From positions 1 through 64,000 of IMG/VR virus record IMGVR_UViG_3300000233_000007: a stretch of DNA of 64,000 nucleotides; one strand, 5' to 3'. A model generated the notes under the pieces. The model saw only the letters and a program-made list of their open reading frames with translations, did not search any database and was not told the DNA's origin. The first letter of the stretch is position 1; each line of letters opens with the position of its first letter. The position numbers and the translations under genes are program-made. Shown in pieces: positions 17,575 to 64,000 of the stretch. This stretch comes from a virus.

Positions 17575-17580
17575 AATATA

Positions 17581-18736: not shown

Positions 18737-18769
18737 AACAAAATAAAAAATATTTAATTTTATTATGTA

Positions 18770-18796: not shown

Positions 18797-18818
18797 CTTC
18801 AATTTTAAATGAATAAAT

Positions 18819-19506: not shown

Positions 19507-19820
19507 AGCTAACAAGTGAAGAATTATTAATTGAGTTTCACAAAGAAATGGAAAGTAAATATCCTGGTATAACTATTGAACAAGCAAAAGATATTTGTTA
19601 TGGTCCTTGGAGATTTTTAAAATCTGAAATGGAAAATGGAGAATTATCAGAAGTAAGGTTTAAATACTTTGGTACATTTCAAGTATATGAAGGAAGAGCA
19701 ATTAATATGTTAGAGAATATTAAGGAAAGATTTAAGTTTAATAAGATAAAAAAAGAAGAGTATTTTAGAATAAAAAATATGTTAACTAAATTTCTAACTA
19801 AAAATGAAATCAAAAATTAA
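19503..19820 (+). CDS. Hypothetical protein
   Basis: 105-aa ORF with 4-nt overlaps. Confidence 0.45.
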   Translation: MKLTSEELLIEFHKEMESKYPGITIEQAKDICYGPWRFLKSEMENGELSEVRFKYFGTFQVYEGRAINMLENIKERFKFNKIKKEEYFRIKNMLTKFLTKNEIKN

Positions 19821-20148
19821 TTTTAATAATATAGTTGCTTATATACAAGGTAATGTTAGATATAAGTTATGGTATTCTAATCTTTATTTTTTTATATCAT
19901 TGTATATAAGAGAACAAATTGATATGAGAATAGTTTCAATGAATAAAGAATGTTATGATAATGGTTCTTGTATAAAATGTGGATGTCGAACTACTCATTT
20001 ACAAATGGCTAATAAGAAATGTGAAGGAGATTGTTATCCAAAAATGTTAAGTAAAAAACAATGGTCTTATTTTAAGATAAGAAAGTTGATGGTTATTGAT
20101 GGAGTTTTATGGAAAATTAAACATAACAGATTTGAAAAAATTAAATGA
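19804..20148 (+). CDS. Cys-rich small protein (CxxC...C...C)
   Basis: CIKCGCRTTHLQMANKKCEGDC. Confidence 0.45.
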   Translation: MKSKINFNNIVAYIQGNVRYKLWYSNLYFFISLYIREQIDMRIVSMNKECYDNGSCIKCGCRTTHLQMANKKCEGDCYPKMLSKKQWSYFKIRKLMVIDGVLWKIKHNRFEKIK

Positions 20149-20441
20149 TGAAGTGGAAAAGACAATCTATAAATTTAGGAAATATTAAAGTTGGAGTTAA
20201 AAAAATTGTTATATTTGAATCATTAGATGTTTTAGATAATATTGATAATATGATTTCTTCATGTGGTTGTAGTGTTCCAAAGTTAGAAGGTAATAAAATA
20301 ATTGTTACTTATACTCCTGGTACTGTACCAATCCATTTGTACAATATTGGATATTATACTTCAACAAAAACAATAACAGTAAATTACAAAGATGGTAATA
20401 CAGATGTTTTGAGTTTTACAGCAAAAATATTTAGAAATTAA
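20145..20441 (+). CDS. Hypothetical protein
   Basis: 98-aa ORF, 4-nt overlap. Confidence 0.45.
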   Translation: MMKWKRQSINLGNIKVGVKKIVIFESLDVLDNIDNMISSCGCSVPKLEGNKIIVTYTPGTVPIHLYNIGYYTSTKTITVNYKDGNTDVLSFTAKIFRN

Positions 20442-20451
20442 AAAATAAATT

Positions 20452-46062: not shown

Positions 46063-47985
46063 ATGAAAAAAAATAAAGTTAAAAATAAAGTGCCAAAGTT
46101 TGAATTTGGCACTTTAATAGAAAATCCTGCTACTGATTTATATGAAAATCAATTAGCTATGGTTAGAGCTTCACAGAAAGCTGGTAATAATGGTTGGGTA
46201 AAAGGATTAAAAATATTTGGTAATCTTGCACAACAAGTTGGTACATCTATGATGAACAAAGGTGTAGCTAATGGTGAAGGAGCTGATGGAAAAGGTGTTG
46301 CAGGATTCTTAAATAAGAATAATGGTGATATACAATCTGGTATGGGAATGATGGGAGCATTTTCTCAATTTTTAGCTATGGGTGGATTAGTACCAGGAGT
46401 TCCAGTAGAAGTAGAGGGAGAAGAAGTTGGAGAAACTCCACAAGGAGATGTAGTTCAATTTAAAGGACCTTCACATGAACAAGGTGGAATTGATGTTGCA
46501 TTACCAGAAGGAACTGAAATGTTTTCTAAAAGAATTAAAGTTGATGGTGTTTCTATGGCAGATAGAAAAAAGAAGAGAGAGAAAAGAACTATGACTTTAG
46601 AACAACTTTTAGAAAAAAATCCAAGTGATAGTTTTACTAAAAATTCTTTAAAAAGAACTTCAGAAGTAAATGATAAAGAAGACAAGTTTGATAGTAATAT
46701 ACAAGAACTTGTAAAAAATACTTTAGACCAGAAAACTAAAGAGGATAATCATTTAGTAGATATAAATGAAAAGCAAAAATTTCAAGGTGGTGGAACTGTC
46801 ATAGGAGATGGAAAAGGAATAATGGAAGCAAATGGTAATCCAATATTAGGTATGATATTTAATATGATAAATAATGGTGGTATGCTAACTGATAATGCTT
46901 ATGGTGGTTATGGAGATGGAACAAGACCACCTTTAGCAACTCCTGGTATTGTTGCAGATGGCACTAAACCAAAATATAGTATTACTGGAAAGAAGTTATA
47001 TTCTAATTTGAAATATGATGATGTATATGATGAAGTGGATAGAGTTGCAGGTCATTTAGGGTTAAATGTAAATTTTGATGACCCAAATAGTGTTAAAGAA
47101 TACCAAAAAGCAATAGGTATTAAATCTGCTGATGGTAAGTTTGGAAAAGATACTTTTAACATTACAAAGAAGTACTTAACACCAATAGGAGAAGGATTAA
47201 AACCAGCAGGTATAATAATGCCAGAATTAAAAGCACCAGAATTAGATTTAAGCAAGTTACCTTCTCTACTTAATGTGGGTATATCAAATGAGGAAACTTC
47301 AAGTCAAGAAAAAACTGGCAAAGGCACATTTAACCCAAAAGATATATTAGGTAGTTTAACTACTGGAGATGCTTTAGGATTAATAGGAAACTATATATCT
47401 ACTTTTGGTCCTGGTAAAAATACAAAAGCAAATAGAGCTGGAGATACTCCTAATATAGATGCTTTTAAAAATTATGGTAAAAAAGGTTTAGAAACTTTAG
47501 ATAAAACTAAACAATATGTAAATCAAGTAAGAGATGAAAAAAATAAAGATTTAGAATTATCAAGAACAGGTTCTATAAAAAGAAATAGTAATTCTGCAAG
47601 AAGTATTAATACTGTAAGAGCTTTAAATTTAGCAACTGATGCAAGTGTTAATAATACTAAAGAAGAAACTTATAATACTTTTGCAGAACAAATGATGTCA
47701 ATTCTTGGTCAAGAATCTCAAATGGAAAATCAAATTGATAGTGTTGTAATGCAAGGAGAACAAAATAGAGATTTAGCTGATAGACAAGATAGAGATAATT
47801 ATTTTACTCAACTTGCTCAAGATATTTCTACTAAAGGTTTTGGTTTACAAGAAACAGGTAAAGATATTAATCAAATAAAAGAAAGACAAGTTATTCAAAA
47901 TTTATTAAATCAATTATCTAATTATGGAATTACTATTGATTCTAATGGTAATTTATCTTCAAAATCAACAACTAAAAAGAAATAA
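46063..47985 (+). CDS. Virion hypothetical protein (640 aa, Gly-rich N-terminus)
   Basis: ORF in the tail and cargo gene block. Confidence 0.55.
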   Translation: MKKNKVKNKVPKFEFGTLIENPATDLYENQLAMVRASQKAGNNGWVKGLKIFGNLAQQVGTSMMNKGVANGEGADGKGVAGFLNKNNGDIQSGMGMMGAFSQFLAMGGLVPGVPVEVEGEEVGETPQGDVVQFKGPSHEQGGIDVALPEGTEMFSKRIKVDGVSMADRKKKREKRTMTLEQLLEKNPSDSFTKNSLKRTSEVNDKEDKFDSNIQELVKNTLDQKTKEDNHLVDINEKQKFQGGGTVIGDGKGIMEANGNPILGMIFNMINNGGMLTDNAYGGYGDGTRPPLATPGIVADGTKPKYSITGKKLYSNLKYDDVYDEVDRVAGHLGLNVNFDDPNSVKEYQKAIGIKSADGKFGKDTFNITKKYLTPIGEGLKPAGIIMPELKAPELDLSKLPSLLNVGISNEETSSQEKTGKGTFNPKDILGSLTTGDALGLIGNYISTFGPGKNTKANRAGDTPNIDAFKNYGKKGLETLDKTKQYVNQVRDEKNKDLELSRTGSIKRNSNSARSINTVRALNLATDASVNNTKEETYNTFAEQMMSILGQESQMENQIDSVVMQGEQNRDLADRQDRDNYFTQLAQDISTKGFGLQETGKDINQIKERQVIQNLLNQLSNYGITIDSNGNLSSKSTTKKK

Positions 47986-47988: not shown

Positions 47989-49626
47989 ATGGGAAGATTT
48001 TATAAAACAGCACATCCACAATTTGTAGATAGAAATATATATACTCCACCTGCTGAATTAATGGCTAAAGTAATAGGTAATGCAGATACTCAAATTGAAA
48101 AAAATGAGACTGCATTATTATCATTATATGATAAACTTCAAGCACAATCATTAGCAGTTGATGAACCAAGATTAAAAGAAATAATTAATAGTTATCAAAA
48201 TAATATTGAAGAGATGGCTAAAAAGGTTCAAGAAGACCCATTAGCTTTCAGAAAAGAAATTGGTAATATTAGACAATTAAGTAGAAAAATAAATGATGAT
48301 TGGACTAAAGGTGAAGTTGCTGCTATTCAAGGTAATAAACAAACAAGAGATGCTTGGGTTAAAGACCATTTAGAAAAAGCTAAAAAAGAAAAAGGATATG
48401 TAACTCAAGATGATATTACTTATGCTAATAGTGTGTTTGATAAACAATTTAATGAGAAAGGTGGAACTAAATATGATAATGGAAAGTATAATAGTTATAC
48501 AAGTGAAAACCTTAATCCATTTGTTAATTTAGAAGATTTAGGAGAAGAAAGAGCTAAAGGATATATAGCTGATGTAGTAACTAAAAATGGTGTATATACA
48601 GATGGTAAATATATGTACACTTCTGAAAAGAAAAATGAAGTAGTTCCTTTTGAAACAGTTAAACAAGGTGTATTATCATCTATGATTAATGATAAAGAAT
48701 TAATGGCTTATTATGGTCAACAAGTAAGATTAGGAAGATATACACAAGATGAAGTTGCACAAAAATTAGAATCATCAGCAAATAGAGTTGCTGAAAAATA
48801 CAGTTATAAAAAAGAAGAATATGGTAACAAATCAACAACAGGAGACCCTTATGCTTTAGAAAATTTAAGACAATCTCATAGAATTGCTCTTGAAGATTAT
48901 AAAGACAAATTAAAAAATGAAGGATTAATTACTGGACCAGGAGAAAATGTATTATGGGCAACTAAAGAACAGCAATTAGAATGGGATAGAAAAAGTATTA
49001 CTCAATTAAATGAGTTAGCTAAAGCAAGTGGTATTAGAATTAATAGTACAGACCCTATAAAAGTAGTAGCAGCTATGAAAAAGATTTATAATAATCAACT
49101 TACACTTGCTAAAAAATCTAGAAAATCTCAAAAAGTAATTGATGTAATAAATAATAATTTAAGTCAATTAAATAATATTGATGGATTTCATAATAATGGT
49201 AGAGGTGTAGCATCATGGACTGGTATGGCAGAAGGTATTACCTTATTAAGTAATGGTAGATATGATGGAACTAAAATTGCTGCAAATACTAAAAAATCTT
49301 TAGAAGCATATTCTAAAAATGGAGCAATGAATAATGTACCATTTTCAATGGAGATAAATGGTAAAATGGTTAAAACAACAATTAATAAATTATTAAAAGA
49401 AGGTAAAATATCAAATGAAAAAGATGTAGTAATATCTAATTCATTTATGCCTACTTGGAATAATCTTAACCCAAATAAACAACATTTGAATCAAGTAGAT
49501 TTTAAAATAAAATTAAAAGGTAATTCAACAGGTAATTTTGATAGTAATGGTAATGAAGTATTTAATACAGAAGTAGTACCTGTTAAATCAACATTTTCAG
49601 ATTTTGAATTGAATTTTTATCAATAA
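47989..49626 (+). CDS. Virion hypothetical protein (545 aa)
   Basis: ORF in the tail and cargo gene block. Confidence 0.55.
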   Translation: MGRFYKTAHPQFVDRNIYTPPAELMAKVIGNADTQIEKNETALLSLYDKLQAQSLAVDEPRLKEIINSYQNNIEEMAKKVQEDPLAFRKEIGNIRQLSRKINDDWTKGEVAAIQGNKQTRDAWVKDHLEKAKKEKGYVTQDDITYANSVFDKQFNEKGGTKYDNGKYNSYTSENLNPFVNLEDLGEERAKGYIADVVTKNGVYTDGKYMYTSEKKNEVVPFETVKQGVLSSMINDKELMAYYGQQVRLGRYTQDEVAQKLESSANRVAEKYSYKKEEYGNKSTTGDPYALENLRQSHRIALEDYKDKLKNEGLITGPGENVLWATKEQQLEWDRKSITQLNELAKASGIRINSTDPIKVVAAMKKIYNNQLTLAKKSRKSQKVIDVINNNLSQLNNIDGFHNNGRGVASWTGMAEGITLLSNGRYDGTKIAANTKKSLEAYSKNGAMNNVPFSMEINGKMVKTTINKLLKEGKISNEKDVVISNSFMPTWNNLNPNKQHLNQVDFKIKLKGNSTGNFDSNGNEVFNTEVVPVKSTFSDFELNFYQ

Positions 49627-49640: not shown

Positions 49641-52600
49641 ATGGCTAAACAAGTTAGATTAGGAAAAGGTAATTTAGGAGCAAAACAAGAAGTAGATAAA
49701 GAAATTATTAAACTTCAAAAACAACAATTATCTAATAAAGAATATCAAGATTTCTTATTAGAATTTCCTTCATTAAAAGCTCAAGAGAAACAAGAAGAAG
49801 ACCAAAATCTTGCAGTTCTAAATCAATTAGAAAAAGAGCAAGAAATTTCAGAAGTGGTTAAACAAAATCAATCACAAGAGAAATGGTATTCTGGTATTAC
49901 AAATTTTTTTGAATCTTTTAGTGATAGAGGAGATATAGCTGATTTATGGTATAATAAAGAAGATGGTAAATGGTATGAAAAACAATCAGATTTATTTGGT
50001 ACTTATGATAAAGAAAATTTAAAAGAAGTTCCTTATGATAAAGTTCAATCATTAATAGAAGCTCAAGCAAAAAAAATGAGTAAATCTGGTGGTTATCAAA
50101 CTGGTATTGCCACAAATAATATTGTAGATAAAGTATTTGAAGATGGTGTATGGGGAACTGTATATGGTCTTGGTAGTTTAATAACAAGAGGTGTTACTGG
50201 TAATTGGGATGATGTTAATGATTCTCAAATGGAATCACTATGGAATAGAACTAAATATTATGGTGCTAATGTATTAGATGTATTTAATGATGCTATAACA
50301 AGTGCTGATGCTGGTTTAGAAGATGAAGCTAATAATCCTGATATTCCTTTTTCATTCTTAATGAGTAAACAAGAACAAGATATTAGAGATGCAAAATATA
50401 ATAAAGAATATAAACAAATTCAACAAAAAGGACAAAAAGCATTAGAAGTTAGATTTGAAGAAGAAAAGAAAAGAAGAGCTTCTGGTGAAAAACTTTTAAT
50501 TGATAAATTATATGATTGGTCAGAAGTTGAAAAAGATAATGATTGGTTTGCACAACAACAAAAATTAAAACAAACAATTTCTGAAAGAGCTATGGAGCTT
50601 GAAGGAAGAAAGAAAAAATCATTTACAAATGTAAAAGATACTATAAATCCTGGTACTTTTAAATATGTTGATGATGCTAAAAAAATAAACATGGAATTAC
50701 CATTAGAAAAAACTGGTGAAGGTAATTCTAAAAGTATATGGGATGTACAAAAATTAATTATTGATGCTTCTGGTAAACCTGTATTAGATGAAACAGGTCA
50801 ACCAATGTATGCAGATAAATATTCATTTACAGAAAAAATTGCAAATTCTAATTGGGATGTTCTTGGTGATGCTTATTATTTACAAGATGATTTAGCTCAA
50901 GGAGTTGGTACTGCTGCTGGTTTTATAGTAGGTGGTAAAGGTACTAATGCAATGTTAAATACAGTAGGAAAAGGTATTGGTAAAACTGCTAATGTAGTTT
51001 CTAAAGGTTTAAATTTAGAAAACAAAGTATTTAATTATACTAATAAATTATTAAGTACAACTAATAAAGTAACACAACCATTAGGTAAAACTATTAATAC
51101 TATTGATAATACTGCATTTAATAAAACATTAAATATAGTAAATGATAAAGTATCAAAAGCAATAAGAACTACTATTCAATCATATTTAATGTCTAATACT
51201 GAATCTGAACAAATTGGAAGACAAGTTCAAAAACAAGTATTAGATGAACAAATAGATAAGTATGCTAAAATCAATATTCAAGATATTGCAAAAGATTTAA
51301 GTGAAAGTGGTAATTTTTCAAGTGATGCTTCTTTGTTTTTACAAGCACAAATGAAAGCAGAAACTATTAGAAAAGAATGGGCAGATAAAAATCCTGAACT
51401 TTTTAATGAAATATTATTACAATCTCAATTAGCACAAGAACAAGCAAGAGGTATTAATAACATAAACTTTATTAATAATATAACTTCAGCAGGTTTATTT
51501 GTTAAAGGTAAATCTTTTTCAAGAAATTTATTATCTAATCCTTTTTCTAAAGCAAATTTAATAAAAGGTGCATGGACTATATCAAGAGAGATGGTTCAAG
51601 AAGGTTTAATTGAAGAAGGTTTAATTAATGGGTTTGCAGAAAAAGCTGGTAAGCAAACTGGTAATATGAAATTCTATGATGTATCTGACTTCTTTAAAAA
51701 TGATGTTGGTTCATCTGAATTTGTTGAAAATGTTTTTGCTGGAGCAATACTTGGTGGTTTACAAACTGCTGGTACTAAAGGAGTTAATGTTATTAGTGAG
51801 TACAAACAATTTAAAGAACAAAAGAAAATTGTAGATGAGTTATCTAAAATTGGTTCTTTAGATACTAAAGAAAATATTAAAAAAGTAATTGAATATTCAT
51901 TAGACAAAGCTAATAATGAAGCTGTTGCTCAAAGAATGAATGAGTTATTAGCAGAAGGTAAAGAATCAAAAGCAAATGCTTTAGCTGATACTTTATTGTT
52001 AAACAAATCTGTAAGAGCTGCTACTTCAGGAACTACTGAAGTTTTGAATAAATCATTACAAGACTTAATGCAAAATAAAGAATTAAGTCCAGAAGATAAA
52101 CAAGAATTACAAAAAGCAATTGATTTTAATAATAAAATTGCAGATACTTTTGATGCTCATATTAAATATGCAAACAAAAAAGGTATTATTGAAAATAGAG
52201 GTAATAGAGAATTACTTGAAAATTATAAACAAGATTTAATATCTTCATTACCAATTCTTGAAAAAGAATATAATGAAGCATTAGAAAGACAAATTAGAAA
52301 AGAATTATCTTCTGAAAATTCTGATTATTCAAATACTAATTATTCAGAGATTTTTGAAAATAAAAAACAATCATCTAAATTAAATGATGACCATAGAGCA
52401 TCAGTAGAATTAAATACTGCTAAAAAACAATTAGAAGAATTACAAAATGTTCAAGATGAATTAGATGATAAATATGATTATATAATTTCTGATAAAGGTC
52501 AAAAAAAATATATTAAATTAATGAACAATATTAGAAAAAATAATATTGTTAGAGATGTTAATGATAAAAATGTAGATGAAGTAAAAGATAATTTAAGAGA

Positions 52601-55600
52601 AAATGATGAACTAACACCAGAAGTTAATTCTGAAATTAATCAAACAGTTGAAGAAAAAGTTGCTAAAGATAATTCTAAAGTAGTTGAACCTGTTGCTAAT
52701 AAACAGGAAGAATTTGTTGCACCTAATAATGAACAAACAGTAAAAGAAGATACTAAAGATGTTCCAGAAAAAGTTAAGGAAAAAGCAAAAGAATTTAGTG
52801 CAATAGTTCAAGAACCTTTATTTGATGATAATCTTGGAGACCCATCAAATGATGTTAGAAGTAATGAAGAAATTGCTGATGATAATGATTCATTAGCTTT
52901 ACAACCTATTGGATTAGATGAAAATAATTCTAATCATAAAAATATTGTTAGTAAATATACTAACATAATGAAAGCATTAAATAAAAATATTGCTGATGAT
53001 TTTGGTACTAATTTAACTGCTAAAGAAATGTTTGGTTTATTTGCTTCTCAAGTTGGATTTGATGTTGCAGAAAAACATTTTAATTTCTTTAAAAAAGGAT
53101 TTGAACAATCAGGTATTGTTGATGAAAATATTAACTGGGATAATTTATATAGTAAATATTTTGATAAAATTAAATCATTTTCATTTAATGAAGAAGTATT
53201 AGAAACTCCTTCTACTATTGAAGAAGTTAAAAAACAAGATGAAGAAACTAATTCAATTATTCAAGAAGATAGTAAACCAATTGGTTATAATCAAGACAAT
53301 ACTCTTATCAAGTATCTTGGTAGAAAGATTGCTGCTGCTGTTAATAAAATTCCTTTTTTAGGAATTAAATATAGAGCTGTGTTTAATGAAATGGATGGAA
53401 GTGTTACTTATGTTAATGATGAAGATGGAGAATTAAATACAGAAGGAATGTCTAATTTAGATGTTGTTTTAAATCCAGATTTATTAGTTTCTGGTAAAAA
53501 ATTCACATTAGAAATTCCACAAGATTGGAGAACAAGAACTGTATCTGATTGGAAGTCAAATGAATTAGGTGTGTTAATCCAAACTACTATGACTATGGAA
53601 GAATGGATGCAACAAAAAAATATTACTCAAGATTCTCAAGAATGGTTGGATAAAGTTCCAATGGATATGATTGTTGATGGTGTTAATATTGGTCCTGGTA
53701 TACATGATGTTTCTTGGTGGAATACAAGAAATGTAGCTGATTTTGTAGATGCTACTATTAATGATGAAAAAATATCATCTGAACAAGCTAAACAAAGACA
53801 AAGAAAAATTATAAGTGAGGGTAGAGAACTTACAAGAAATATTAGAAAAAATGTTTTAAATGGTAATAATGAAATGGTAATTACTGATAGAGAAGAAGGA
53901 CATACTCTTTCTACTCCTGATGGTAAACTTAATTCAATTACTGAAGCTAATCCTTCAGCACAAATTGCTATATTCAGTCCACAAGGATTTATAGTTAATA
54001 AAGGTGATAATGGTAATGAGTATTCTAAATTAAATATTGTTAATATTAATTCTATTACTGATAAAGGTCATGTTTATATGATTTCAAGAATTGGTACAGA
54101 AGTTAAAGATGGTAAAAATGTTCCTACTTATGTGGCTCATAAATTACACACTAATCATAATCAACAAAATTTAGTTGAACTTGCTAAATCAAGACAAAGA
54201 ATGTATGATGCAGCAGATATTTTAAATAAAATTGGTAAGTATAATAATCCTACACAAGAACAAATTACTTGGGCAGAGAGTGTTAGAAATCAAGTTAGAA
54301 CTATGACTGGTGTATCTATTGATAATATTTCATCAGAAGGTACTTCTATACAATATATTGGGTTAGGTAAATTAAAACAATTATATCCTTTAACAACAAA
54401 AAATAAATCTGGTTTAATGTTATTACCTCAACTTGCAAATATTAATAATCAAAAGTTACCTGTTGTACATGCAGATGGTTCAGTAACTAATTATAAATCA
54501 AAAGCAGGAGAAGGTTATAAAGCTATGTTAATGGATAATTTACATACTCAAAAGAAATTTCATACTATACAAGACCAGGAAGGTAATAGTATGCAAATTC
54601 TTGATATACAACCAAGAATCAAATTTGATTTAGTAAATAAAGACAAAGATGTAGTTAAAGAAGAAAAGAAAGAAGAAATTAAAAAAGCTAAAGAAAAAAC
54701 TTCTTTAAGTGAAACTGAAGTTATTTCTAATGAAACATTTAATGATTTTGTTGATAATGGTACTGTTGATAATTCTGTAATTGAAACAATTGCTGAAAAA
54801 ATAAAAAGTAATGAATCTTTATCAGAAAGAGAGTTAGCAATATTTAATGATAAAACTTCAGAAGTTAATGAAGTTTTAAAAAATATTCCTATTGAATCTA
54901 TAACTCATGGTCAAAGACAAAGAGTAGTTGAACATTTGTTTCATAAAATATTAAGTTCAATTGATATTAGTAAAGATTTTACTAATCAAGATGTATTAAA
55001 TGATATTAAAAATTCATTTGATAATCATTTAGCTGATATTAAAGATACTAAAGAATATGAGTATTTAGTTGCTAATAGAGATTCTATATTAGGTCTTGGT
55101 AATTTTTCTAATGATATTAATACAGTTAAATCTGAAATTGAATCATTTTTAAATCAAGAATTTCAAGAAGATACTAATGAAGAAACTCAATTAAATGATG
55201 AAGGTCAATTTGAAAAAAATAATAATAAAGCATCTTTTGAAAATGATGTAAGAACTTCATTATCTACAAAATTAAAAATGTTTTTTGCAGGTATTGAAAA
55301 AGATAGTTCTAAAGTAGTATCAGAAGATTTTGCTGGTTTAAGTTCTTATTATGGATTAGATGAAGTTATAGGTGGTTTACAAGATATGTTAGTAAATGTA
55401 CCTAATAATCCATTAGCATTTAAAAATAGAATTGAAAACCAAATTGCTAAAAATCCAGAAGAGTTTGGATTTTTACAAAATGTATTAGATAAATTTGAAT
55501 CAGCTCCAGTTGAAATTCAAAAAGAAATTCTTTTTAGATTAAATCAAACTAAAAATGAAATGTCTTTTGTTATGTATTCTAAATCAAAAAATGGTAATTA

Positions 55601-58600
55601 TACACTAATGACTTATGATGCTAATTCAAAAAATCCTAATATTAAAACAAAATTGCAATGGCAAGAGAATTTTAAACAATCTAATTTAATTGAAAATTAT
55701 GGAGATAATTATAGAGTAAAACAAGATATTGCTAATCAATTAATTAATCAATACAATTCATGGAAAGGTAAATATGAAAATGTACCTAATAAAGAATATG
55801 TAGATTGGTTATCTAATTTTGGTATTCAAGTATCTGAAAAAACTATTCAAGATTATAAAGATGGTTTAGTTGATGGTAATATTAATTTTCCTGGTGTATT
55901 TGCTGTAAATGGTGGTGTATTTGGAACATTATATAGTAACCTTACTTCTGCTATTGATAAACAAAATAAAGATTCAAAATTAGTCTTTAAATACAAAAAT
56001 GAAAATAAAAACTCAAAAGATGGGTTCAATATATTAATGAATAACAATAATGGTTTCTTAAAAACTATGATTGATGTTCAAGTTAATAATACATTTAATT
56101 TAGCAAGTAGTATGTATATTGGTGGAAAAACAATTAATGCTTTTTCTCAACCTAATTATACAACTGAACAATTAAGAAAATTAAAAGATGATACTAATCC
56201 TTTAGTTTCTAATTTACAAAATACTGCTTTTGCTAAAAATAGTTTATTATTGAAACTTATTAATAATCCAAAGATTAAAAATGCTTTAAACATTGGATAT
56301 GTAAGTTTACAATCACTTAAACAACAAGGACAAAAATTATATCAAGATTCAGAAATTGTAGATTTATCATCACAAGATTATGATTTATTGTTACAAGGTT
56401 TCTTTGAAAGTGAAGGTGCATATTTCAAAAACCAGGAATTAGAAAATAATGGTATATCATTAAGAGAAACTAAAATGACTTTTCCTACTCTTTCAGATTC
56501 ATCACAAATGTTTGTGTTTAATACTGTTGGATTAGATTTAAAGAAAGGTAATTTTACTTTTGTAGATGGTAAAGTTAAAATCAATTCAGAGGTTTTAGAT
56601 GTTTTATATAGTCAATTAGTACAACCTGATTTAGATAGAATTGAAGCATATTTAAAATCAGTTGGTAATACTAATGTACAAGGATTAGATTTAGGTTCTC
56701 AATTGTTTACAATGATACCAAGTCTTAATACTTTACCAATTAAAGTTAATGGTACTGATGTTAAGTTATTAACTTTGATTCATACAGGAATTAAAAATGG
56801 TAATAATGTAAATGATATAATTGAAGAATATAAAGAACAAATTCATAAAAAATTACAAGATGTAATTTCTAATAGTGCTGAATCAAAAATCAAAGTTGAA
56901 AATCAACAAATGAGTGGTTCATGGGTTACTAATGGATTTGTTCAAAATGGTGAAACTGAAAGGGCAGGTGTTAATGTTAGTTTCTTGGATTCTAAATATA
57001 TTAATTCAAGAGGTACTACAAGTAAATTAGAAGCAACTCAAATTGCTGCTTATGATTTTACTATTAATTATTATATAAATCAAGCACAAATTCAAATGTT
57101 GTTTGCTGGAGATATATCTAATTATGTACAAGATAAACAAGCATCTAAATTTAATATTGATAAAAATGGAAATGTAGATGTTACAAAACCTAAAGTTTCA
57201 GTTAATGATAATGAAAATCAATTAGAAAAAGAACAAGAAGTTTATACTAATATTATTAAAGATACTTCTGTTAATATGTCTAAAAGGTTGAAAGAACTTA
57301 TTAGTCCTGGTAATAGAATAGCTGAAAGTACAAATGAAAAATATATACAAGTAATGGTTAATGATGTTGAAGAAGCATCTAACACATTAGAAGAATTAGT
57401 TAAAATGTGGTATTCTGATTTGTATGAAGAAAATAAAAATGATATTAAAAAACTTAAAGAATTAGAAAGTAAAATAAGAAAAGAAAATAAAGAAGGTAAA
57501 TCTGCTAAAGTTTCAGAGAATGAATATAATGCAATCAAGAAATCATTACAAAATAAATTTCCTGATATTGCTAATTATTTTAAAATTACTGCAACTGATG
57601 CTCAAGAATATACTACTTGGCAAGAACATTTACATATTTTACTTAATCAAGGTAGAATTAAAAAAGATGTATTTGATAGTTTATATTCTAAATTAGATTC
57701 TCAAAGTAAAGATGGTTTAAATGAAAATAATACTTTAAGTAAAGATGAGAAAAAAGTTATCTTTCAAGTTATTAAACCTTTACATGCTGGAATGTATTTT
57801 GAAGATTTAAAAAATAATAAAGGTGAAGTAGTATCAAAAATACAAAGATATGTTTATGTTAAAACATCTTCTTTTCCATTATTACCTCAATTAACTCAAG
57901 GTATTGAATTAGATAATTTGAGAAAAAATATTGAACAATTGGAAGCAAAAACTGGTAAAAAAGTTAGAGTTTCTTATCAATCAGGTAATAAAGTTGGTGG
58001 TGTTAAAAATGCAATAAATATTTCTGAACTTTATTCAGATTATAATGGTGAATTAGAAAGTAAAATTATAGCAAGTTCTGCTACACTTGATAGAGAAAAT
58101 TTTTCTATTCAACAAGATAAACCATTTAAAACTGATAAAAATATTAAAGCTAATAAAAGAGATGAAATTAATAGAGGTACTCAATTTGAAAAAATTATAT
58201 TAGGTAATGGTATTAATCAAATAACAGAAAAAATATTTCCTAATAAATTTGATAGTTCTTTATTAAAATCATTAGGTATTACTGAAGATAATGGTAAAAT
58301 ATCTGGTAAAGATTTATATGCAATATATAATAATCTTTATTCAAGAGAACAAAGTATATTAAGAAATCAATTATATAATTCATTAGGATTAAATAATAAT
58401 GGTGATTGGGTTAATAATATTGAAACTTTAGAACATATTAAAAATGCTTTAAATAAAAGATTATCTAATCAACAAGATAAAGAAATACTTGAGTTATCTT
58501 ATATAGTTGCAGAAGAAGATGAGAATGGTAAATTAGTTAATCATTATTATTCTAAAAAACAAATGGAAGAAAAAGGTTTAAAACCTACAAGAGCAGAATT

Positions 58601-61600
58601 TAATATTCCTATTTGGATGTCTCCAAATTCAAGAAAATTTGAATCTGTACTTAATTCAATTGTTAATAATAAATTGGTTAATCTTAAACTTCCTGGTTTT
58701 TCATCTCCTGTTGCATCTCAAGAAGGATTTAGATTTGTTGATAATTTAGATTCTATTGATAAAACTGGAATTATATTTACAGATAAATTTGAAGGAGAAT
58801 TAAAAGCAACTCATAATTCAGATGGTAGTTTAAAAACTGCACAAGTATTAGTTGCATCTAAATTTAGAGTTAAAAAGGAAAATGAAGATACAGGTAAATA
58901 TACAGATGAATTATTAGACCTTACTCAATATACTAAAACTCTTGAAGATGGTAGAACAGTTCTTGATATGGATAAAGTTAATCCAGAATTATTAGAAATG
59001 TTCTCATTTAGAATTCCAACATCAGCTCACCAATCAGGTGCTTTGATTGAAATAGTTGGTTTCTTACCACATGGTTCAGGAGATTTAATGATTGTACCAA
59101 AAGACCATACTACTCAATTAGGAGAAGATTATGATATTGATACAAGATATGTTTATTCTCAAAATTATAGAATAGATAGTAAAGGTAATGTAAGAAAGAT
59201 TGATGCAAAATACATTCAAAGAAGAATAATAATGTTAGAAGATAATTTTCAATCAGAACAAGAAACTGAAAGAAGAATTGATGACATATTAAATTTATTT
59301 GATTCTATTAGAAATAATGAAGAAATACAAAATATATTTGCTAATGAAAGAACAAGTCAAGAACAAAAAGTACAAATATTAAAAGATAAATTAAACCATC
59401 TATTAATTGAAAATCAAATTATAGATGTATATAAATCTATATTTTCTTCTACTGATGAAAAAATTCAGAAGATGATTGGTGCTACATTATCTACAAAATT
59501 TGCTGAAGATAATGCTAAAGCAATAGATGATAAAATAAACAGTCAAAATACAGGAGAGAATTTTTCAATATTTGATGATAGACACCAGAAATCAATTTTG
59601 AAACTTGGTGCTTCTGGTAAATTAGGTATTGGGGTACATTCTAACTGGGTAGTATTAAATTCATTATTTCAACAAATGGAGAAAAAACCAAGATTGATTA
59701 ATGGATTTAATCAAAAAACTGGTAAAGCAATACCTTTTAGTATGAGAATTGGTAACTTCTTATCAGTTGGTAAATTAGGAGAAACAAAAGCATTAGAACC
59801 AGAAAAACCAATAAAAGGATTTATACCAAGGTTGTTATCAGTAGTTAATATGGAATCTCAAAACTCTGCAACAGATAATCAAAAATTACAGATTATGGGT
59901 AGAAGAAATGAGAATAAATATACTATTAATGTATTTGCTTTGATGTCTAATTTAGGATTTGATAAAGATATAGTAAATGGTAAAGAATTATCTCTTCCTT
60001 CATTATTTATATCTCAACCAATTATTAGAAGATATGTAGAATTAAAAGAACAATATGATTCTATTATATCTGATTATCAAGAAGATGTTGATGAAAAAAT
60101 AACAGGTATATTAGCTCAAGAATTTAGTGAAGGAGTTGATTTAATTAATACTAAAGCTGGATTAAGAATGGATTTTGACCAAATGAAAGGTGTTGAAGTT
60201 TCTGAATTAACTGCTCAAAAATTATATGATAGTTTATTAAAAGGTAATAATGCTCAACAATGGGCTGTGTATGAAAAATTTATGGATTTATCTATTCATG
60301 CTAAAAATATAAATAAAGTTCAACAACTTGCTAATATTGATAGTGATGGTTTAGGAATATCTTTCTTTAATACTATAAACAAAAAAGATTCATTGTTATT
60401 ACAAATGACTTCTGAAAATCTTAATATTGAAGGTATTGAAGGATTGTTTGGTAAACAACAATTAGTTAATAATAATGAAGAAGATTTACAAAATGATTTA
60501 CTTAATGAAGGTTATATTAAAGTTGAAACACAAGATACATATAGTGTTTTTGTTAAACCTACATCACCATTAAATAGTAAATTAATTAGTTCAATATCTT
60601 CTGGTTATAATTTATGGAGAAATGTTTTACCATTTGAAAATGAATTTATTGATGAACAAATTAATAGTATAATTGATATAACAGGTAAAAATGCTGATAC
60701 TAAAAATGGATTAGAATTAAAATATAAAGTAATTTCTGAAATGAAAGATTTTATTTATTCATACTCTAATCTTGGTATATTTGATAAGTCAGTTAATGAA
60801 GAAAGAAATTCTTTATTCATTGATACTGATACTAATCAATCATTAGCATCTTATCTTAATGCACTTAAAAAATCTAATCATAAATTATTTAATGAACCAT
60901 TTTTTAAAGATTTAGAATTTGTATTAAACAAAAATAATGAACCATCATTAGTTAAATATACAACCAATGATAGAACTAATTTTAATAAAAATTCAGTTTA
61001 TAATTTGTTTAGTATATTAAATGAATCTAAAGAATCATTACCAGGATTTAATCAAGATATGAATTATACTTTTGAGAAATTAATAAAAGATTTAACTAAA
61101 TATAGTTTGTTAGCTAATCAAGAAAATGGTGCAATTGGATTTAGAAATTATATTCCATTAGCAGTATTAAATAAATATAAAGTAACTGATAATTTAAGAA
61201 GATATTCTGGTGTAGGTAAAAACAGTAGTCATAATTTATTATTGAATGGTGATTTTAAAGGATTAATGAATATTATTGGTGCATATCAAATAAATGAAGA
61301 TAATACTATTGATGTAGAATATGGTAATTCAAAAATGATTCAAGGTATTATAGATAAGATAAACACTAAATATGGTACATCTTCTTTAGTATATGATGAA
61401 AATAATAGTAGAATAATTGTTAATACAGATTTATCTAATTTTAAAAGTGTATTCATTAGACAATTCTTTCAACATAATCCAGAAGAAGCTAAAAAATTCA
61501 ATTGGAGAACTAAAAAAGAATGGTTAAAACAAGCTAATTCACAAACATTAGAAGAATTAGATTGGTTTGTTCCAAAGAAAGAAATGCCTGAATATATTTC

Positions 61601-62786
61601 AATTAGAGATTCTAAAAATAGTAAATTCTTATTATTTGAAAAAGATTCTAATGGTGTTTATAAAAGAGTAAATAATTTAGGTTCATTTGGATTTAATGAA
61701 TATTCTCCTTTTGTAAATAATAATGAATCATTATTAGAGAGTAATAGAAAAGTAAATATAGTAACAACTCAACCAATAGTTGAAAATATTAATGTTGATG
61801 AAGATTTTGGAATATCTAATGGTTTAAATTCTGTTTTAGAAAATATTATTAAAGATAATTCTAAATTTAAAGATGTTGCTGAATTACTTTTACCATTTAT
61901 TAATAATATTCCAATTGAAGTTAAAAATATTAATGGATTAAAAGCTAATGCTATATATGTTCCTTTACAAAAAGGTGGTGTAGTTAGTACAAGTATTGGA
62001 GAATTAAATAGAGGAACAATTTATATTTCTGAAGATTTATTAAATAGTGGTAATAAAGAACGTATTTATTATGCTATTATGGAAGAGGTAGTTCATTCTG
62101 TTACTATTGATACTGTTGATAAATATGTAGATACAAGAAAATCATACATTAATGAAAAAGGTGAAGTAAATATTAATTATTTAAGTGATAATCCACCTGC
62201 TCATATTGTAAAATTAGTATCTTTATTTAAAGAAGGTTCAAAACATATTTTAAATAAATATGCAAAAAATAGTTCATTAGAAGAAGCTATAAATATTTTA
62301 AACCAACAAAAAGCAATTTGGAATAATGATACTGAACATGAATTATATTCTAATGAAAATAATGCTGATAATAATTTAAAGGTTGATAGTTATAGAACAT
62401 TAAATCTTGGAGAATTTATTGCAGGTGTAATGTTGTCTGATAAATTTAGAAGTGAAATGAATAATGTTGAATATAGACAAACAGGAAAAACTATTCTTTC
62501 ACAATTTGCAGATGTAGTTAGTAGAATTATAAATTCTATTGCTCCTGGTGTTGTTAAAAATTCAATAACTGAACATACATTTGATGCAGTAATGAGTTTA
62601 CTTACAAATAAAGAATCAGAAAGTAATGTAGCAAGTAATTCTAAATTTAATGAAACTAAAGCTGATATTGAAGCTAAAAAACTTTTAAATGAAGAAGGTA
62701 ATCCAGAGAATGATGTAAGAGATGAAAATAGTGTTGATTTACAACCAATTGGATTATCAGAAGTATTGAAAATTAAAACTTGTTAA
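49641..62786 (+). CDS. Giant virion protein (4381 aa) containing a two-barrel (multisubunit-type) RNA polymerase catalytic core: a probable packaged and ejected virion RNAP
   Basis: β-like DPBB motif SGNKVGGVK at nt 57981..58007 (compare bacterial β GRHGNKGV). β'-like DPBB RIPTSAHQSGALIEIVGFLPHG...LMIVPKDHTTQLGEDYDIDT at nt 59010..59141 aligns with E. coli β' RAPTLHRLGIQAFEPVL....NADFDGD. Single uninterrupted 13.1-kb ORF. Confidence 0.8.
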   Translation: MAKQVRLGKGNLGAKQEVDKEIIKLQKQQLSNKEYQDFLLEFPSLKAQEKQEEDQNLAVLNQLEKEQEISEVVKQNQSQEKWYSGITNFFESFSDRGDIADLWYNKEDGKWYEKQSDLFGTYDKENLKEVPYDKVQSLIEAQAKKMSKSGGYQTGIATNNIVDKVFEDGVWGTVYGLGSLITRGVTGNWDDVNDSQMESLWNRTKYYGANVLDVFNDAITSADAGLEDEANNPDIPFSFLMSKQEQDIRDAKYNKEYKQIQQKGQKALEVRFEEEKKRRASGEKLLIDKLYDWSEVEKDNDWFAQQQKLKQTISERAMELEGRKKKSFTNVKDTINPGTFKYVDDAKKINMELPLEKTGEGNSKSIWDVQKLIIDASGKPVLDETGQPMYADKYSFTEKIANSNWDVLGDAYYLQDDLAQGVGTAAGFIVGGKGTNAMLNTVGKGIGKTANVVSKGLNLENKVFNYTNKLLSTTNKVTQPLGKTINTIDNTAFNKTLNIVNDKVSKAIRTTIQSYLMSNTESEQIGRQVQKQVLDEQIDKYAKINIQDIAKDLSESGNFSSDASLFLQAQMKAETIRKEWADKNPELFNEILLQSQLAQEQARGINNINFINNITSAGLFVKGKSFSRNLLSNPFSKANLIKGAWTISREMVQEGLIEEGLINGFAEKAGKQTGNMKFYDVSDFFKNDVGSSEFVENVFAGAILGGLQTAGTKGVNVISEYKQFKEQKKIVDELSKIGSLDTKENIKKVIEYSLDKANNEAVAQRMNELLAEGKESKANALADTLLLNKSVRAATSGTTEVLNKSLQDLMQNKELSPEDKQELQKAIDFNNKIADTFDAHIKYANKKGIIENRGNRELLENYKQDLISSLPILEKEYNEALERQIRKELSSENSDYSNTNYSEIFENKKQSSKLNDDHRASVELNTAKKQLEELQNVQDELDDKYDYIISDKGQKKYIKLMNNIRKNNIVRDVNDKNVDEVKDNLRENDELTPEVNSEINQTVEEKVAKDNSKVVEPVANKQEEFVAPNNEQTVKEDTKDVPEKVKEKAKEFSAIVQEPLFDDNLGDPSNDVRSNEEIADDNDSLALQPIGLDENNSNHKNIVSKYTNIMKALNKNIADDFGTNLTAKEMFGLFASQVGFDVAEKHFNFFKKGFEQSGIVDENINWDNLYSKYFDKIKSFSFNEEVLETPSTIEEVKKQDEETNSIIQEDSKPIGYNQDNTLIKYLGRKIAAAVNKIPFLGIKYRAVFNEMDGSVTYVNDEDGELNTEGMSNLDVVLNPDLLVSGKKFTLEIPQDWRTRTVSDWKSNELGVLIQTTMTMEEWMQQKNITQDSQEWLDKVPMDMIVDGVNIGPGIHDVSWWNTRNVADFVDATINDEKISSEQAKQRQRKIISEGRELTRNIRKNVLNGNNEMVITDREEGHTLSTPDGKLNSITEANPSAQIAIFSPQGFIVNKGDNGNEYSKLNIVNINSITDKGHVYMISRIGTEVKDGKNVPTYVAHKLHTNHNQQNLVELAKSRQRMYDAADILNKIGKYNNPTQEQITWAESVRNQVRTMTGVSIDNISSEGTSIQYIGLGKLKQLYPLTTKNKSGLMLLPQLANINNQKLPVVHADGSVTNYKSKAGEGYKAMLMDNLHTQKKFHTIQDQEGNSMQILDIQPRIKFDLVNKDKDVVKEEKKEEIKKAKEKTSLSETEVISNETFNDFVDNGTVDNSVIETIAEKIKSNESLSERELAIFNDKTSEVNEVLKNIPIESITHGQRQRVVEHLFHKILSSIDISKDFTNQDVLNDIKNSFDNHLADIKDTKEYEYLVANRDSILGLGNFSNDINTVKSEIESFLNQEFQEDTNEETQLNDEGQFEKNNNKASFENDVRTSLSTKLKMFFAGIEKDSSKVVSEDFAGLSSYYGLDEVIGGLQDMLVNVPNNPLAFKNRIENQIAKNPEEFGFLQNVLDKFESAPVEIQKEILFRLNQTKNEMSFVMYSKSKNGNYTLMTYDANSKNPNIKTKLQWQENFKQSNLIENYGDNYRVKQDIANQLINQYNSWKGKYENVPNKEYVDWLSNFGIQVSEKTIQDYKDGLVDGNINFPGVFAVNGGVFGTLYSNLTSAIDKQNKDSKLVFKYKNENKNSKDGFNILMNNNNGFLKTMIDVQVNNTFNLASSMYIGGKTINAFSQPNYTTEQLRKLKDDTNPLVSNLQNTAFAKNSLLLKLINNPKIKNALNIGYVSLQSLKQQGQKLYQDSEIVDLSSQDYDLLLQGFFESEGAYFKNQELENNGISLRETKMTFPTLSDSSQMFVFNTVGLDLKKGNFTFVDGKVKINSEVLDVLYSQLVQPDLDRIEAYLKSVGNTNVQGLDLGSQLFTMIPSLNTLPIKVNGTDVKLLTLIHTGIKNGNNVNDIIEEYKEQIHKKLQDVISNSAESKIKVENQQMSGSWVTNGFVQNGETERAGVNVSFLDSKYINSRGTTSKLEATQIAAYDFTINYYINQAQIQMLFAGDISNYVQDKQASKFNIDKNGNVDVTKPKVSVNDNENQLEKEQEVYTNIIKDTSVNMSKRLKELISPGNRIAESTNEKYIQVMVNDVEEASNTLEELVKMWYSDLYEENKNDIKKLKELESKIRKENKEGKSAKVSENEYNAIKKSLQNKFPDIANYFKITATDAQEYTTWQEHLHILLNQGRIKKDVFDSLYSKLDSQSKDGLNENNTLSKDEKKVIFQVIKPLHAGMYFEDLKNNKGEVVSKIQRYVYVKTSSFPLLPQLTQGIELDNLRKNIEQLEAKTGKKVRVSYQSGNKVGGVKNAINISELYSDYNGELESKIIASSATLDRENFSIQQDKPFKTDKNIKANKRDEINRGTQFEKIILGNGINQITEKIFPNKFDSSLLKSLGITEDNGKISGKDLYAIYNNLYSREQSILRNQLYNSLGLNNNGDWVNNIETLEHIKNALNKRLSNQQDKEILELSYIVAEEDENGKLVNHYYSKKQMEEKGLKPTRAEFNIPIWMSPNSRKFESVLNSIVNNKLVNLKLPGFSSPVASQEGFRFVDNLDSIDKTGIIFTDKFEGELKATHNSDGSLKTAQVLVASKFRVKKENEDTGKYTDELLDLTQYTKTLEDGRTVLDMDKVNPELLEMFSFRIPTSAHQSGALIEIVGFLPHGSGDLMIVPKDHTTQLGEDYDIDTRYVYSQNYRIDSKGNVRKIDAKYIQRRIIMLEDNFQSEQETERRIDDILNLFDSIRNNEEIQNIFANERTSQEQKVQILKDKLNHLLIENQIIDVYKSIFSSTDEKIQKMIGATLSTKFAEDNAKAIDDKINSQNTGENFSIFDDRHQKSILKLGASGKLGIGVHSNWVVLNSLFQQMEKKPRLINGFNQKTGKAIPFSMRIGNFLSVGKLGETKALEPEKPIKGFIPRLLSVVNMESQNSATDNQKLQIMGRRNENKYTINVFALMSNLGFDKDIVNGKELSLPSLFISQPIIRRYVELKEQYDSIISDYQEDVDEKITGILAQEFSEGVDLINTKAGLRMDFDQMKGVEVSELTAQKLYDSLLKGNNAQQWAVYEKFMDLSIHAKNINKVQQLANIDSDGLGISFFNTINKKDSLLLQMTSENLNIEGIEGLFGKQQLVNNNEEDLQNDLLNEGYIKVETQDTYSVFVKPTSPLNSKLISSISSGYNLWRNVLPFENEFIDEQINSIIDITGKNADTKNGLELKYKVISEMKDFIYSYSNLGIFDKSVNEERNSLFIDTDTNQSLASYLNALKKSNHKLFNEPFFKDLEFVLNKNNEPSLVKYTTNDRTNFNKNSVYNLFSILNESKESLPGFNQDMNYTFEKLIKDLTKYSLLANQENGAIGFRNYIPLAVLNKYKVTDNLRRYSGVGKNSSHNLLLNGDFKGLMNIIGAYQINEDNTIDVEYGNSKMIQGIIDKINTKYGTSSLVYDENNSRIIVNTDLSNFKSVFIRQFFQHNPEEAKKFNWRTKKEWLKQANSQTLEELDWFVPKKEMPEYISIRDSKNSKFLLFEKDSNGVYKRVNNLGSFGFNEYSPFVNNNESLLESNRKVNIVTTQPIVENINVDEDFGISNGLNSVLENIIKDNSKFKDVAELLLPFINNIPIEVKNINGLKANAIYVPLQKGGVVSTSIGELNRGTIYISEDLLNSGNKERIYYAIMEEVVHSVTIDTVDKYVDTRKSYINEKGEVNINYLSDNPPAHIVKLVSLFKEGSKHILNKYAKNSSLEEAINILNQQKAIWNNDTEHELYSNENNADNNLKVDSYRTLNLGEFIAGVMLSDKFRSEMNNVEYRQTGKTILSQFADVVSRIINSIAPGVVKNSITEHTFDAVMSLLTNKESESNVASNSKFNETKADIEAKKLLNEEGNPENDVRDENSVDLQPIGLSEVLKIKTC

Positions 62787-62835
62787 GATAGAATTATTTC
62801 ATATCTTTGTTAAAAATTTTAAACATAAAAATATA

Positions 62836-64000
62836 TGAGTTTAGGATGTAATTTAAAAGACATAAAAAAGAATGCTTTTGAAAGTATTCAACAAATAGTA
62901 AAAACTAAAACCATCTCTATGAACAGAGATGGTTTTATTACACTTGATTACTCAAAGAGTAATAAGTACAAAACAAGAGATGCTGCTTATAATGTAGCTG
63001 TAACTATTCAGAATAAAATTAAAGATTTCATTTCTGAACAAGTTGGTCCACAATTTACTGAAGGATGGACTGAAATTATACAAAATAATAATGAGGTTTC
63101 TTTAAGATATACTTTTCCAAAGTATGTTGAAAATGCTTATAATAAAAAATTTGCTATACTTGAAAATAGACAAAAAATTCAAAATGAAATTGAAGAAGCA
63201 AGACAACAACATATTGAAGATGCTAAAAGAGCAGGTATAGATGAATCTGAATTTGCTAATGATTATATGTATTTTCAATATCAAGATGATTTTGATGACT
63301 TTCTTGACCCTGATGTACAAGAAAGAATGGATAATTCTATTCCAAATGATTTTAGTTCTTATTATAAATATAAAACAGAATTATTAAAAAAATTAGAAGA
63401 TAATTTTGAAACTTATAAAATTCTAAATAAAAACAATTATGGTACTGATAAATATAAAACTGATGTATATACTTTTCAATATACTATAAATAAACTAAAA
63501 GATGAAATTGAAAATCTTGATGTTGAAAATACAGAATTAGTATTTCAAGATGTTATTAATGAAATAAATTATCTTAATAGCTTACTTGATACAACTAATA
63601 CTGAATTATTAGGTAATCAAGATATTATTAATAGAATTGATTTCTTACATCAAATGATTACTGGTGAAAATCTTAATGGTGATTTAGTTAATTATGATGT
63701 TTGGAATGGAGATACTTATGTAAAATATGATTCTTTAATTGTTGCTGGGATTACTAAATTATCAAATAAATTAAAAACAAAACAACAAGCAATTATTAAA
63801 GATTTATTATCCAAAGATATTATATATCAAGCACATAAAGATGAATTTACAGAAGAAGAAGTACAATCATTATTTGAAAAAATGTCTGATATTAATGTGT
63901 TACAAGAATTGTTTCTTGGTATAAATTCTAATAATGATAGTATTGTAGCTACTTTATTAAATACTACTTTTCAAACTAATGTTCAGAAAACAAAACAATT
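62836..64000 (+). CDS. 5' part of a further large virion protein; ORF open to the window end (at least 388 codons)
   Basis: ATG at 62836 with no stop through 64000. Same strand and codon style as the giant gene. Confidence 0.55.

Follow-up and report, generated by a model that had tools for sequence, protein, structure and literature searches.

The giant cargo proteins of crAss-like phages are the closest described systems to the locus analyzed here. Homologues in phi14:2 and crAss001 have been shown to be packaged in the virion and ejected (10.1101/2020.03.07.982082; PMC10172136). Three such proteins are fused in some phages, a zincin-like domain is encoded in this gene set, and the fused polyproteins were proposed by Drobysheva et al. 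to be ‘likely cleaved’ (10.1101/2020.03.07.982082). How a cargo of more than 1 MDa, including the virion RNA polymerase, is loaded, ordered, ejected, and activated was still an open question in 2026 (PMC13434306); cleavage of the fused polyproteins has been the subject of speculation since 2018-2021, without candidate sites (10.1101/2020.03.07.982082; PMC5512222). Here we describe a short peptide that occurs twice, once in an internal linker and once in the C-terminal tail, in a 4381-residue giant protein of an environmental virus. The protein is encoded in a stretch of 64,000 nucleotides (positions 1 to 64,000 of IMG/VR record IMGVR_UViG_3300000233_000007), hereafter the window, which covers about two thirds of a genome of ~100 kb. 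The repeat represents this virus's form of a motif found again and again in the linkers and C-terminal tails of crAss-like giants. On the basis of this recurrence, the motif very probably serves recognition, either in docking or in cutting.

The giant protein can be placed among the known cargo proteins by homology. Searches with tblastn retrieved the giant proteins of FpV4-type Flavobacterium phages (32% identity), crAss001, and related crassviruses, as well as proteins of phi14:2-type phages. FpV4 gp32 (4287 residues) aligns over residues 971-4321 at 27% identity, and residues 1141-3845 match PHROG 16227, annotated as ‘virion structural protein’ (E=8e-192). Pfam returned no matches for the giant protein. 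Residues 2646-3579 align with residues 955-1758 of gp66, the virion RNA polymerase of phi14:2 (BLAST, E=2e-27). The sequence DYDID falls inside this segment and is presumably the exact counterpart of DFDID, the catalytic motif of gp66. The open reading frame (ORF) is placed at the end of the structural module, after the terminase, portal, major capsid protein, and tail genes. Given these upstream genes and the homology of the giant to crassvirus proteins, the virus is classified as an environmental crAss-like phage. Its giant ORF encodes a virion cargo/RNA-polymerase polyprotein, roughly equivalent to gp67 of phi14:2 and its RNA polymerase gp66 in a single chain, followed by a zincin-like C-terminal domain. 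An orthologue at ~70% identity is present on one IMG/VR contig.

The original prediction, made by a model from the letters of the window, described a peptide of the form NDVR…LQPIGL that occurs near residue 1070 and again at the C-terminus. Both peptides are found in the ORF translation, at residues 1070-1092 and 4357-4372; the nucleotide limits first assigned to them were a few bases off and out of frame, and corrected positions are listed in Table 1. The unit common to both copies is also longer than first described, comprising G-x-P-x-NDVR, a spacer of 6-13 residues, and S-Φ-x-LQPIGL-x-E (where Φ is a hydrophobic residue). After the C-terminal LQPIGL come the residues SEVLKIKTC and the stop codon, such that the copy ends nine residues before the stop. 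Six-frame translation of the window revealed no further copies of the repeat. A DNA-level repeat or recent gene conversion was ruled out, as the copies differ at synonymous sites (CCT/CCA, GTT/GTA). The C-terminal copy alone contains the palindrome CCAATTGG, the internal copy having CCTATTGG instead. A third ENDVR sequence is found in the context FENDVRTSLSTKLKMFF and is kept in the 70%-identical relative; it is probably unrelated, since the region is folded and no LQP-type motif comes after it.

Within this protein alone, the repeat is only marginally significant. Exact repeated hexamers occur in 61% of shuffled versions of this N/K/E-rich giant, and a repeat with a probability as low as that of LQPIGL arises in 4.2%. 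The real protein contains four repeated hexamers, including the 8-mer NQLEKEQE, which is present twice and is probably a chance repeat in a K/E/Q/N-rich protein. Whole-protein Smith-Waterman shuffling was uninformative at this composition, with every shuffle exceeding the observed gapped score of 65. The repeat is nevertheless clearly non-random, because the C-terminal tail matches the internal linker more closely than any other window of the giant does and because the two-site arrangement recurs in distant relatives.

About 190 distant relatives formed the comparison set. An exhaustive HMMER search with the last 1200 residues of the giant recovered 364 homologues in the representative library, and the best 150 of these 364 were examined. 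They are mostly 4000-5500 residues long and less than 50% identical to each other. In each relative, the domain that follows the internal copy (dom2, residues 1095-1680 of the giant) served as the positional anchor. Searches of GenBank phages with the motif region by megablast and tblastn found nothing. A word-indexed protein search returned one match and then none, as low-complexity words swamped the candidates.

A related motif is located directly before dom2 in many lineages, as exemplified by NEALTLQPIIRD, NESLNLQPHVFE, VDSLFAPVELDE, NQSLFQPATVNE, EQAFSPREIDKN, and DSSLFDPLELRE. The consensus at this position is [DE][DE]-x-[L/F]-F/L-[S/Q/E]-P-x-[E/V]-[ILVY]-[DEN]. In its general form the motif can be written [DE]x-Φ-[F/L]-x-P-x-x-Φ-[DE], i.e. 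an acidic run followed by Φ, F or L, any residue, P, any two residues, Φ, and D, E, or N. The proline of the internal motif is invariant in the ten sequences of alignment A1. When a leave-one-out matrix was applied, the best match of the entire protein fell within the 65 residues before dom2 in 25 of 62 relatives, compared with 0.95 expected. A matrix trained on internal copies only found its best downstream match in the last 60 residues of 14 of 110 proteins (2.5 expected, p=2e-7). Matrix matches of at least 9 bits, plotted relative to the dom2 anchor, form three clusters only: the linker before dom2 (J1), a second linker ~600-900 residues after J1 at the gp67|gp66 boundary (J2), and the tail. 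The J2 site constitutes a third copy in some clades. Motif-like peptides are also present in crAss001, namely DLDFDPRTRRD (gp50, 91-102), VYGAPLEVNEG (gp50, 2369-2380), and NFSPVRLINE (gp47, 751-762), with the second gp50 copy located 44 residues from the protein end. The motif thus persists whether the neighbouring modules are fused or encoded by separate genes, as for gp50 of crAss001. Conservation in relatives had been proposed as a check on the original prediction, and the two halves of the peptide differ in this respect. The LQP-type core is conserved in its family form and in its position. The NDVR half is kept in tails and is not conserved internally, where the ~70%-identical relative has LDSK instead.

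The copies within a protein are also more similar than those of different proteins. Similarity between J1 and the tail is higher within proteins than between them (permutation p=5e-5), and the tail ranks in the top 1% of its own protein’s windows in 10 of 58 proteins (p=3e-10). When only linker-like windows were considered, as a control for lineage composition, the tail still ranked in the top 1% in 7 of 45 proteins. Individual lineages have their own versions of the motif: SFSPDVYDF, SYSPDLLED, and SFSPDIQDF in P0114; three copies reading AAFEPN, ASFEPN, and SAFEPS in P0126; and ISIGGFNFSxGG...F..EI.K, present twice, in P0035. In the clade of loci L045-L049, whose giants are 4388-4489 residues long, DLSI(S)DT replaces LQPIGL at both J1 and the tail, where the sequence reads NPENDVRDENSxDLSLSDT. 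The corresponding stretch in the tail of the phage described here, NPENDVRDENSxDL (window 62697-62738), is nearly identical to that of this clade, despite the adjoining domain being only ~25% identical. The tail is therefore the most conserved part of the C-terminal region. Taken together, the lineage-specific paired versions and the conservation of the tail indicate that the motif is under strong constraint and that its copies change together.

Both copies are located in regions predicted to be flexible. AlphaFold2 models were built one per region, each from a 10-sequence alignment. The internal copy closes a low-confidence linker, five residues before the first confident helix of dom2, and the tail copy is situated in a disordered C-terminal tail and is followed by a short helix. 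No matches to the PDB were obtained when the models of dom2 and the C-terminal domain were searched with Foldseek, nor when the PDB was searched by sequence. The idea that the repeat is a functional signal is thus upheld, given that the peptides are conserved in position, reside in disordered linkers, and co-vary by lineage.

Table 1. Positions of the repeated peptide, the giant protein that contains it, and other features of the window
Feature	Nucleotides	Strand	Residues	Description and basis
Giant virion cargo protein	49641..62786	+	4381 residues	ORF list and translation
Internal motif copy	52836..52922	+	1066-1094	GDPSNDVRSNEEIADDNDSLALQPIGLDE; linker J1 just before dom2; low-pLDDT (predicted local distance difference test) linker
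NDVR, internal copy	52848-52859		1070-1073	
LQPIGL, internal copy	52899-52916		1087-1092	
dom2	52923..54680	+	1095-1680	Folded module right after internal motif; AlphaFold model m5133e1701b66
DYDID	59127..59141	+	3163-3167	Candidate catalytic metal-binding motif of virion RNA polymerase; read from sequence
Zincin-like variant EEVVHSVT	62082..62105	+	4148-4155	Family consensus [H/E/K]-E-x-x-H-[SA]-x-T
C-terminal motif copy	62697..62762	+	4353-4374	GNPENDVRDENSVDLQPIGLSE; disordered tail; sequence and AlphaFold
NDVR, C-terminal copy	62709-62720		4357-4360	
LQPIGL, C-terminal copy	62739-62756		4367-4372	
Codon of only cysteine of giant	62781..62783	+	4381	C4381, last residue
Next cargo gene, start	62835..64000	+	388 residues	MSLGCNLKD... 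(MSLGC, nt 62835-62849); runs off window; only cysteine is residue 5
NQLEKEQE, first occurrence	49821-49844		61-68	
NQLEKEQE, second occurrence	57216-57239		2526-2533	
Third ENDVR	55239-55253		1867-1871	
ORF upstream of giant	46063-47985		640 residues	PHROG of unknown function
ORF upstream of giant	47989-49626		545 residues	PHROG of unknown function
TerL gene	21563			5' of giant ORF
Portal gene	23846			5' of giant ORF
Major capsid protein gene	27552			5' of giant ORF

A second feature of these proteins is the distribution of their cysteines, which are nearly absent outside the protein ends. The other ORFs of the window average 0.95% cysteine, corresponding to ~41 cysteines expected in the giant, of which a single one is observed as its last residue. 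Among the 150 relatives, whose median cysteine count is one, 132 have a cysteine among their final three residues. The protein encoded directly downstream has its only cysteine, over the 388 residues inside the window, near the opposite end; this is also the case for its full-length homologue in the closest relative (1550 residues), in which the only cysteine is at position 5. The same rule applies to three cultured phages. In phi14:2, cysteine is found only at the last residue of gp67, at 3 and 2179 in gp66, and at 3 in gp65. FpV4 gp32 and gp33 obey the rule too. In crAss001, cysteines are found only at 2339 of 2341 in gp47, at 5, 1334, and 2404 in gp50, and only at 5 in gp49. The rule is not an artefact of adjacent gene ends, since crAss001 gp47 is encoded on the opposite strand from gp50 and gp49. 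It was further assessed in loci L004, L006, L007 (crAss001), and L009-L049. In 36 IMG/VR loci, 32 giants end with a cysteine and 31 of those have a large ORF directly downstream, which starts M-x(1-2)-C in all 31 cases; the four giants lacking a terminal cysteine have no such downstream neighbour. The zincin motif is upstream of the gene split in the phage described here and downstream of it in phi14:2, and cysteines mark every split nonetheless. When the downstream proteins of the closest relative and of FpV4 (gp33) were compared with the 150 relatives by BLAST, nothing was found, leaving no fused junction to compare. The two ORFs just upstream of the giant contain no cysteines, which fits a general avoidance of cysteine in ejected proteins.

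This distribution, as read from the sequences, suggests that terminal cysteines connect each cargo protein head to tail with the next, through a disulfide or a metal. Virions of crAss001 are known to be rich in inter-subunit disulfides. A broader model can be envisaged in which the cargo forms one continuous chain, held by a peptide bond where modules are fused and by a disulfide or shared metal site where they are split. The disulfide would connect the C-terminal cysteine of one protein with the cysteine at position 3-5 of the next. The motif would flank the junctions and serve for holding the chain in the particle, for releasing it, or for both, and the chain would be released in the reducing cytoplasm by cleavage or reduction, so that the whole would act as a redox- and motif-controlled ‘beads on a string’ ejection device. 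We consider this complete scheme unlikely as it stands.

The window was also analyzed for enzymes that might act on the motif. The original prediction raised maturation cleavage by a prohead protease, by analogy with other giant virion proteins, which would yield fragments of ~1090 and ~3280 residues. However, no such family was identified in any ORF of the structural module with PHROGs, and the window encodes no homologue of gp66 of crAss001, annotated as ‘aspartyl protease’. A candidate peptidase is contained in the giant itself. Its zincin-like variant begins at E4148, 234 residues before the C-terminus. In alignment A3, E219, H222, and T225 are invariant; the glutamate and second histidine are constant while the first position is H, E, or K. 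Zincin-type Pfam matches were obtained for relatives only and were below threshold (SprT-like, E=0.003; DUF6782; Aspzincin), and the zincin fold was unconfirmed by the fold search of the C-terminal domain model. Zincin-like peptidases were proposed by Iyer et al. in 2017 to process phage polyvalent proteins, possibly after injection, whereas the N4 virion RNA polymerase, likewise equipped with a zincin-like domain, is packaged without prior cleavage and requires its C-terminal region for encapsidation (PMC5512222). Virions of crAss001 resolved by reducing sodium dodecyl sulfate polyacrylamide gel electrophoresis yield bands at ~150, 270, and >300 kDa (PMC6235969). The calculated sizes are 154.5 kDa for gp49, 262.5 kDa for gp47, and 276.9 kDa for gp50 (PMC10172136). 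Because the bands fit the unprocessed proteins, cleavage before or during assembly is disfavored in crAss001. Maturation by a prohead protease is accordingly an unlikely explanation of the repeat, given that no such gene was found in the window, that the motif is absent from the other virion proteins encoded there, and that the crAss001 homologues run at about full length on gels.

As for how the signal is used, we favor multivalent docking or tethering to one common virion partner, with a probability of roughly 0.38. The copies would be equivalent docking sites for a partner inside the particle, whether the portal, the capsid interior, or another cargo protein. The two copies in this phage, and three in some clades, would tether the 4381-residue chain at defined points; tethering would promote loading into the procapsid and hold the chain in order for ejection. 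The last copy adjoins the terminal cysteine, the probable point of attachment to the next cargo protein. Docking is ranked first for several reasons. The acidic peptide has a hydrophobic core and is disordered, as is typical of docking motifs; it persists in fused and split proteins alike and is found in virion proteins that appear uncut. The C-terminal region of the N4 enzyme provides a precedent. Docking corresponds to the ‘repeated capsid-targeting signal’ that had been offered as an alternative to cleavage, and this alternative is viable. The expected short conserved peptide in a disordered linker or tail is present; what does not hold is that such a signal be common to the cargo proteins of the window. 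LQPIGL has no copy in the six frames outside the giant, matrix matches in other ORFs do not rise above chance, and the motif is absent from the other cargo-like proteins (the 1973-, 640-, and 545-residue ORFs and the start of the next ORF). This restriction weighs against docking, because a general cargo-loading peptide would be expected in several proteins. Several other observations do likewise. Similarity between J1 and the tail is detectable in only about a third of lineages, and the J2 copy is absent in this phage. Neither copy docks onto its neighbouring domain in the AlphaFold models, although monomer models from shallow alignments provide a weak test. In addition, sites at module boundaries with a lineage-specific consensus common to all junctions are equally the signature of polyprotein cleavage.

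Cleavage after delivery into the cell, as opposed to during capsid maturation, is the main rival, if somewhat doubtful. One peptidase, be it the zincin-like domain of the protein itself or another phage or host enzyme, would cut the copies, and the N-terminal module, dom2, the polymerase part, and the next protein attached by a disulfide would come apart. The sites are suitably placed at J1, J2, and just upstream of the terminal cysteine, and their consensus is common to the junctions of one protein and different between lineages, as in viral polyproteins. The same protein contains a zincin-like [H/E/K]ExxH domain with an invariant catalytic glutamate and second histidine. Some metallopeptidases prefer proline at P3 and a hydrophobic residue at P1', which the P-x-x-Φ of the motif (P-I-G-L here) resembles. 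Cleavage has moreover been hypothesized in the literature (10.1101/2020.03.07.982082; PMC5512222). Conversely, gp47, gp49, and gp50 are about full size in crAss001 virions, and the N4 polymerase is packaged unprocessed in spite of its zincin-like domain. Lineages with KExxH (P0038, P0070) still retain co-varying copies, the phage described here has EEVVH rather than HExxH, and the fold search provided no confirmation of a zincin. The motif also persists where the modules are already separate genes, and a cut at the tail copy, nine residues from the end, would free only a tiny peptide. A signal without any external partner is improbable. The motif would then be a structural element of the linker, a helix start or hinge at module starts (hydrophobic staple plus capping box, Φ-[S/D]-P-x-E-Φ), and occasional recombination among the linkers would keep the copies alike. 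The consensus F-[S/Q/E]-P-x-[E/V]-[ILVY] does resemble a helix N-terminus pattern. The positions of the predicted helices, five residues beyond the internal copy and shortly after the tail copy, fit this explanation, as do the repeated stretches of 25-45 residues in P0035 and P0140, which look like duplicated segments. But the proteins are mostly helical, with more than 100 helices, and have strong matrix matches only at J1, J2, and the tail; L-Q-P-I-G-L contains poor capping residues and a glycine; the synonymous differences between the copies preclude recent conversion; and the tail is conserved far beyond the neighbouring fold. More improbable again is that the motif binds a host factor after ejection, bringing the injected polymerase into contact with a conserved protein of Bacteroidota, for which the sliding clamp, host RNA polymerase, and membrane components are examples. 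The Φ-F-x-P core is kept across phages of many Bacteroidota hosts and the disorder and acidity of the motif are features of many host-targeting peptides. P0031, P0033, P0070, and P0020 contain Q-S-L-F or D-L-F, which we take to be loosely similar to clamp-binding peptides. Against this, strong lineage-specific divergence would be unexpected for a highly conserved host target. A beta-clamp-binding motif proper, QL[SD]LF, was rejected, as neither LQPIGL nor the DLSI(S)DT of L045-L049 matches its consensus. Finally, a chance repeat in a long protein of biased composition is hardly credible. The frequencies of repeated hexamers and gapped scores in shuffles would allow it, but the comparative data contradict it: positions are conserved and copies co-vary across tens of lineages that share less than 50% identity with one another, and the tail surpasses all other windows of the giant as a match to the internal linker.

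We found neither the linker motif nor the terminal-cysteine rule described in the crassvirus literature searched. Short linear signals in packaged proteins are already known; what is new is this motif, the arrangement of its several co-evolving copies, and its occurrence at junctions marked by cysteines. The motif provides concrete residues for mutation and for mass-spectrometry searches, and is present in gp47 and gp50 of crAss001, which is in culture. If the disulfide linkage is true, gp47-gp50-gp49 adducts would be expected under non-reducing conditions.

Further observations were made on dom2 and on the remainder of the window. In its AlphaFold model, dom2 consists of a helical N-subdomain, an acidic loop, and a beta-rich domain. 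A stand-alone homologue of 562 residues (P0001, 57% identity) is encoded at L003:10001-11689, on the 397-kb ENA contig ctg11928. It covers residues ~1121-1680 of the giant, beginning just past the position of the internal motif. Its neighbourhood is a bacterial chromosome-sized contig with several transposase genes, and P0001 may be a remnant or domesticated copy. Within the window, the ~4 kb at 16420-20451, between the leftward replication-type and rightward structural gene blocks, lack any ORF of at least 150 residues and are likely a divergent promoter or regulatory region. The window yielded no tRNA genes.

The motif can be compared with several known types of signal. The capsid-targeting sequence of T4 internal proteins and the cargo-loading peptides of encapsulins are short conserved peptides of proteins located inside, or loaded into, an HK97-type shell. 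Such peptides are common to different cargo proteins of one particle, and that of T4 is removed by the prohead protease. The motif is like them in being short, conserved, and carried by a packaged protein on a flexible linker or at an end, and unlike them in being confined to one protein, in two to three copies, with no prohead protease found in the window. Prohead-protease motifs of large myoviruses are likewise short and repeated in virion or ejected proteins; these are L/I-x-E for T4 gp21 and S/A/G-x-E for phiKZ and SPN3US (PMC10052503, PMC7411985). Those motifs comprise three residues, occur in many head proteins, and are accompanied by a dedicated protease gene, none of which applies here. 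The giant more closely resembles the polyvalent proteins and N4 virion RNA polymerase (PMC5512222), which are very large, multidomain, packaged in the head, and injected with the DNA, with a polymerase and an HExxH-type domain near the C-terminus. It differs in that no cleavage-site motif is defined for polyvalent proteins, that the N4 enzyme is packaged uncut, and that the sequence here is EEVVH, with a weakly supported zincin assignment. The closest resemblance is to the crAss-like cargo proteins (phi14:2 gp67/gp66/gp65; crAss001 gp47/gp50/gp49; FpV4 gp32/gp33), which are homologous, occupy the same gene position, and have a DxDxD-type motif and giant size. Compared with phi14:2, the gp67-like and gp66-like parts are fused in this phage, and the gene split is located downstream of the zincin-like motif rather than upstream of it.

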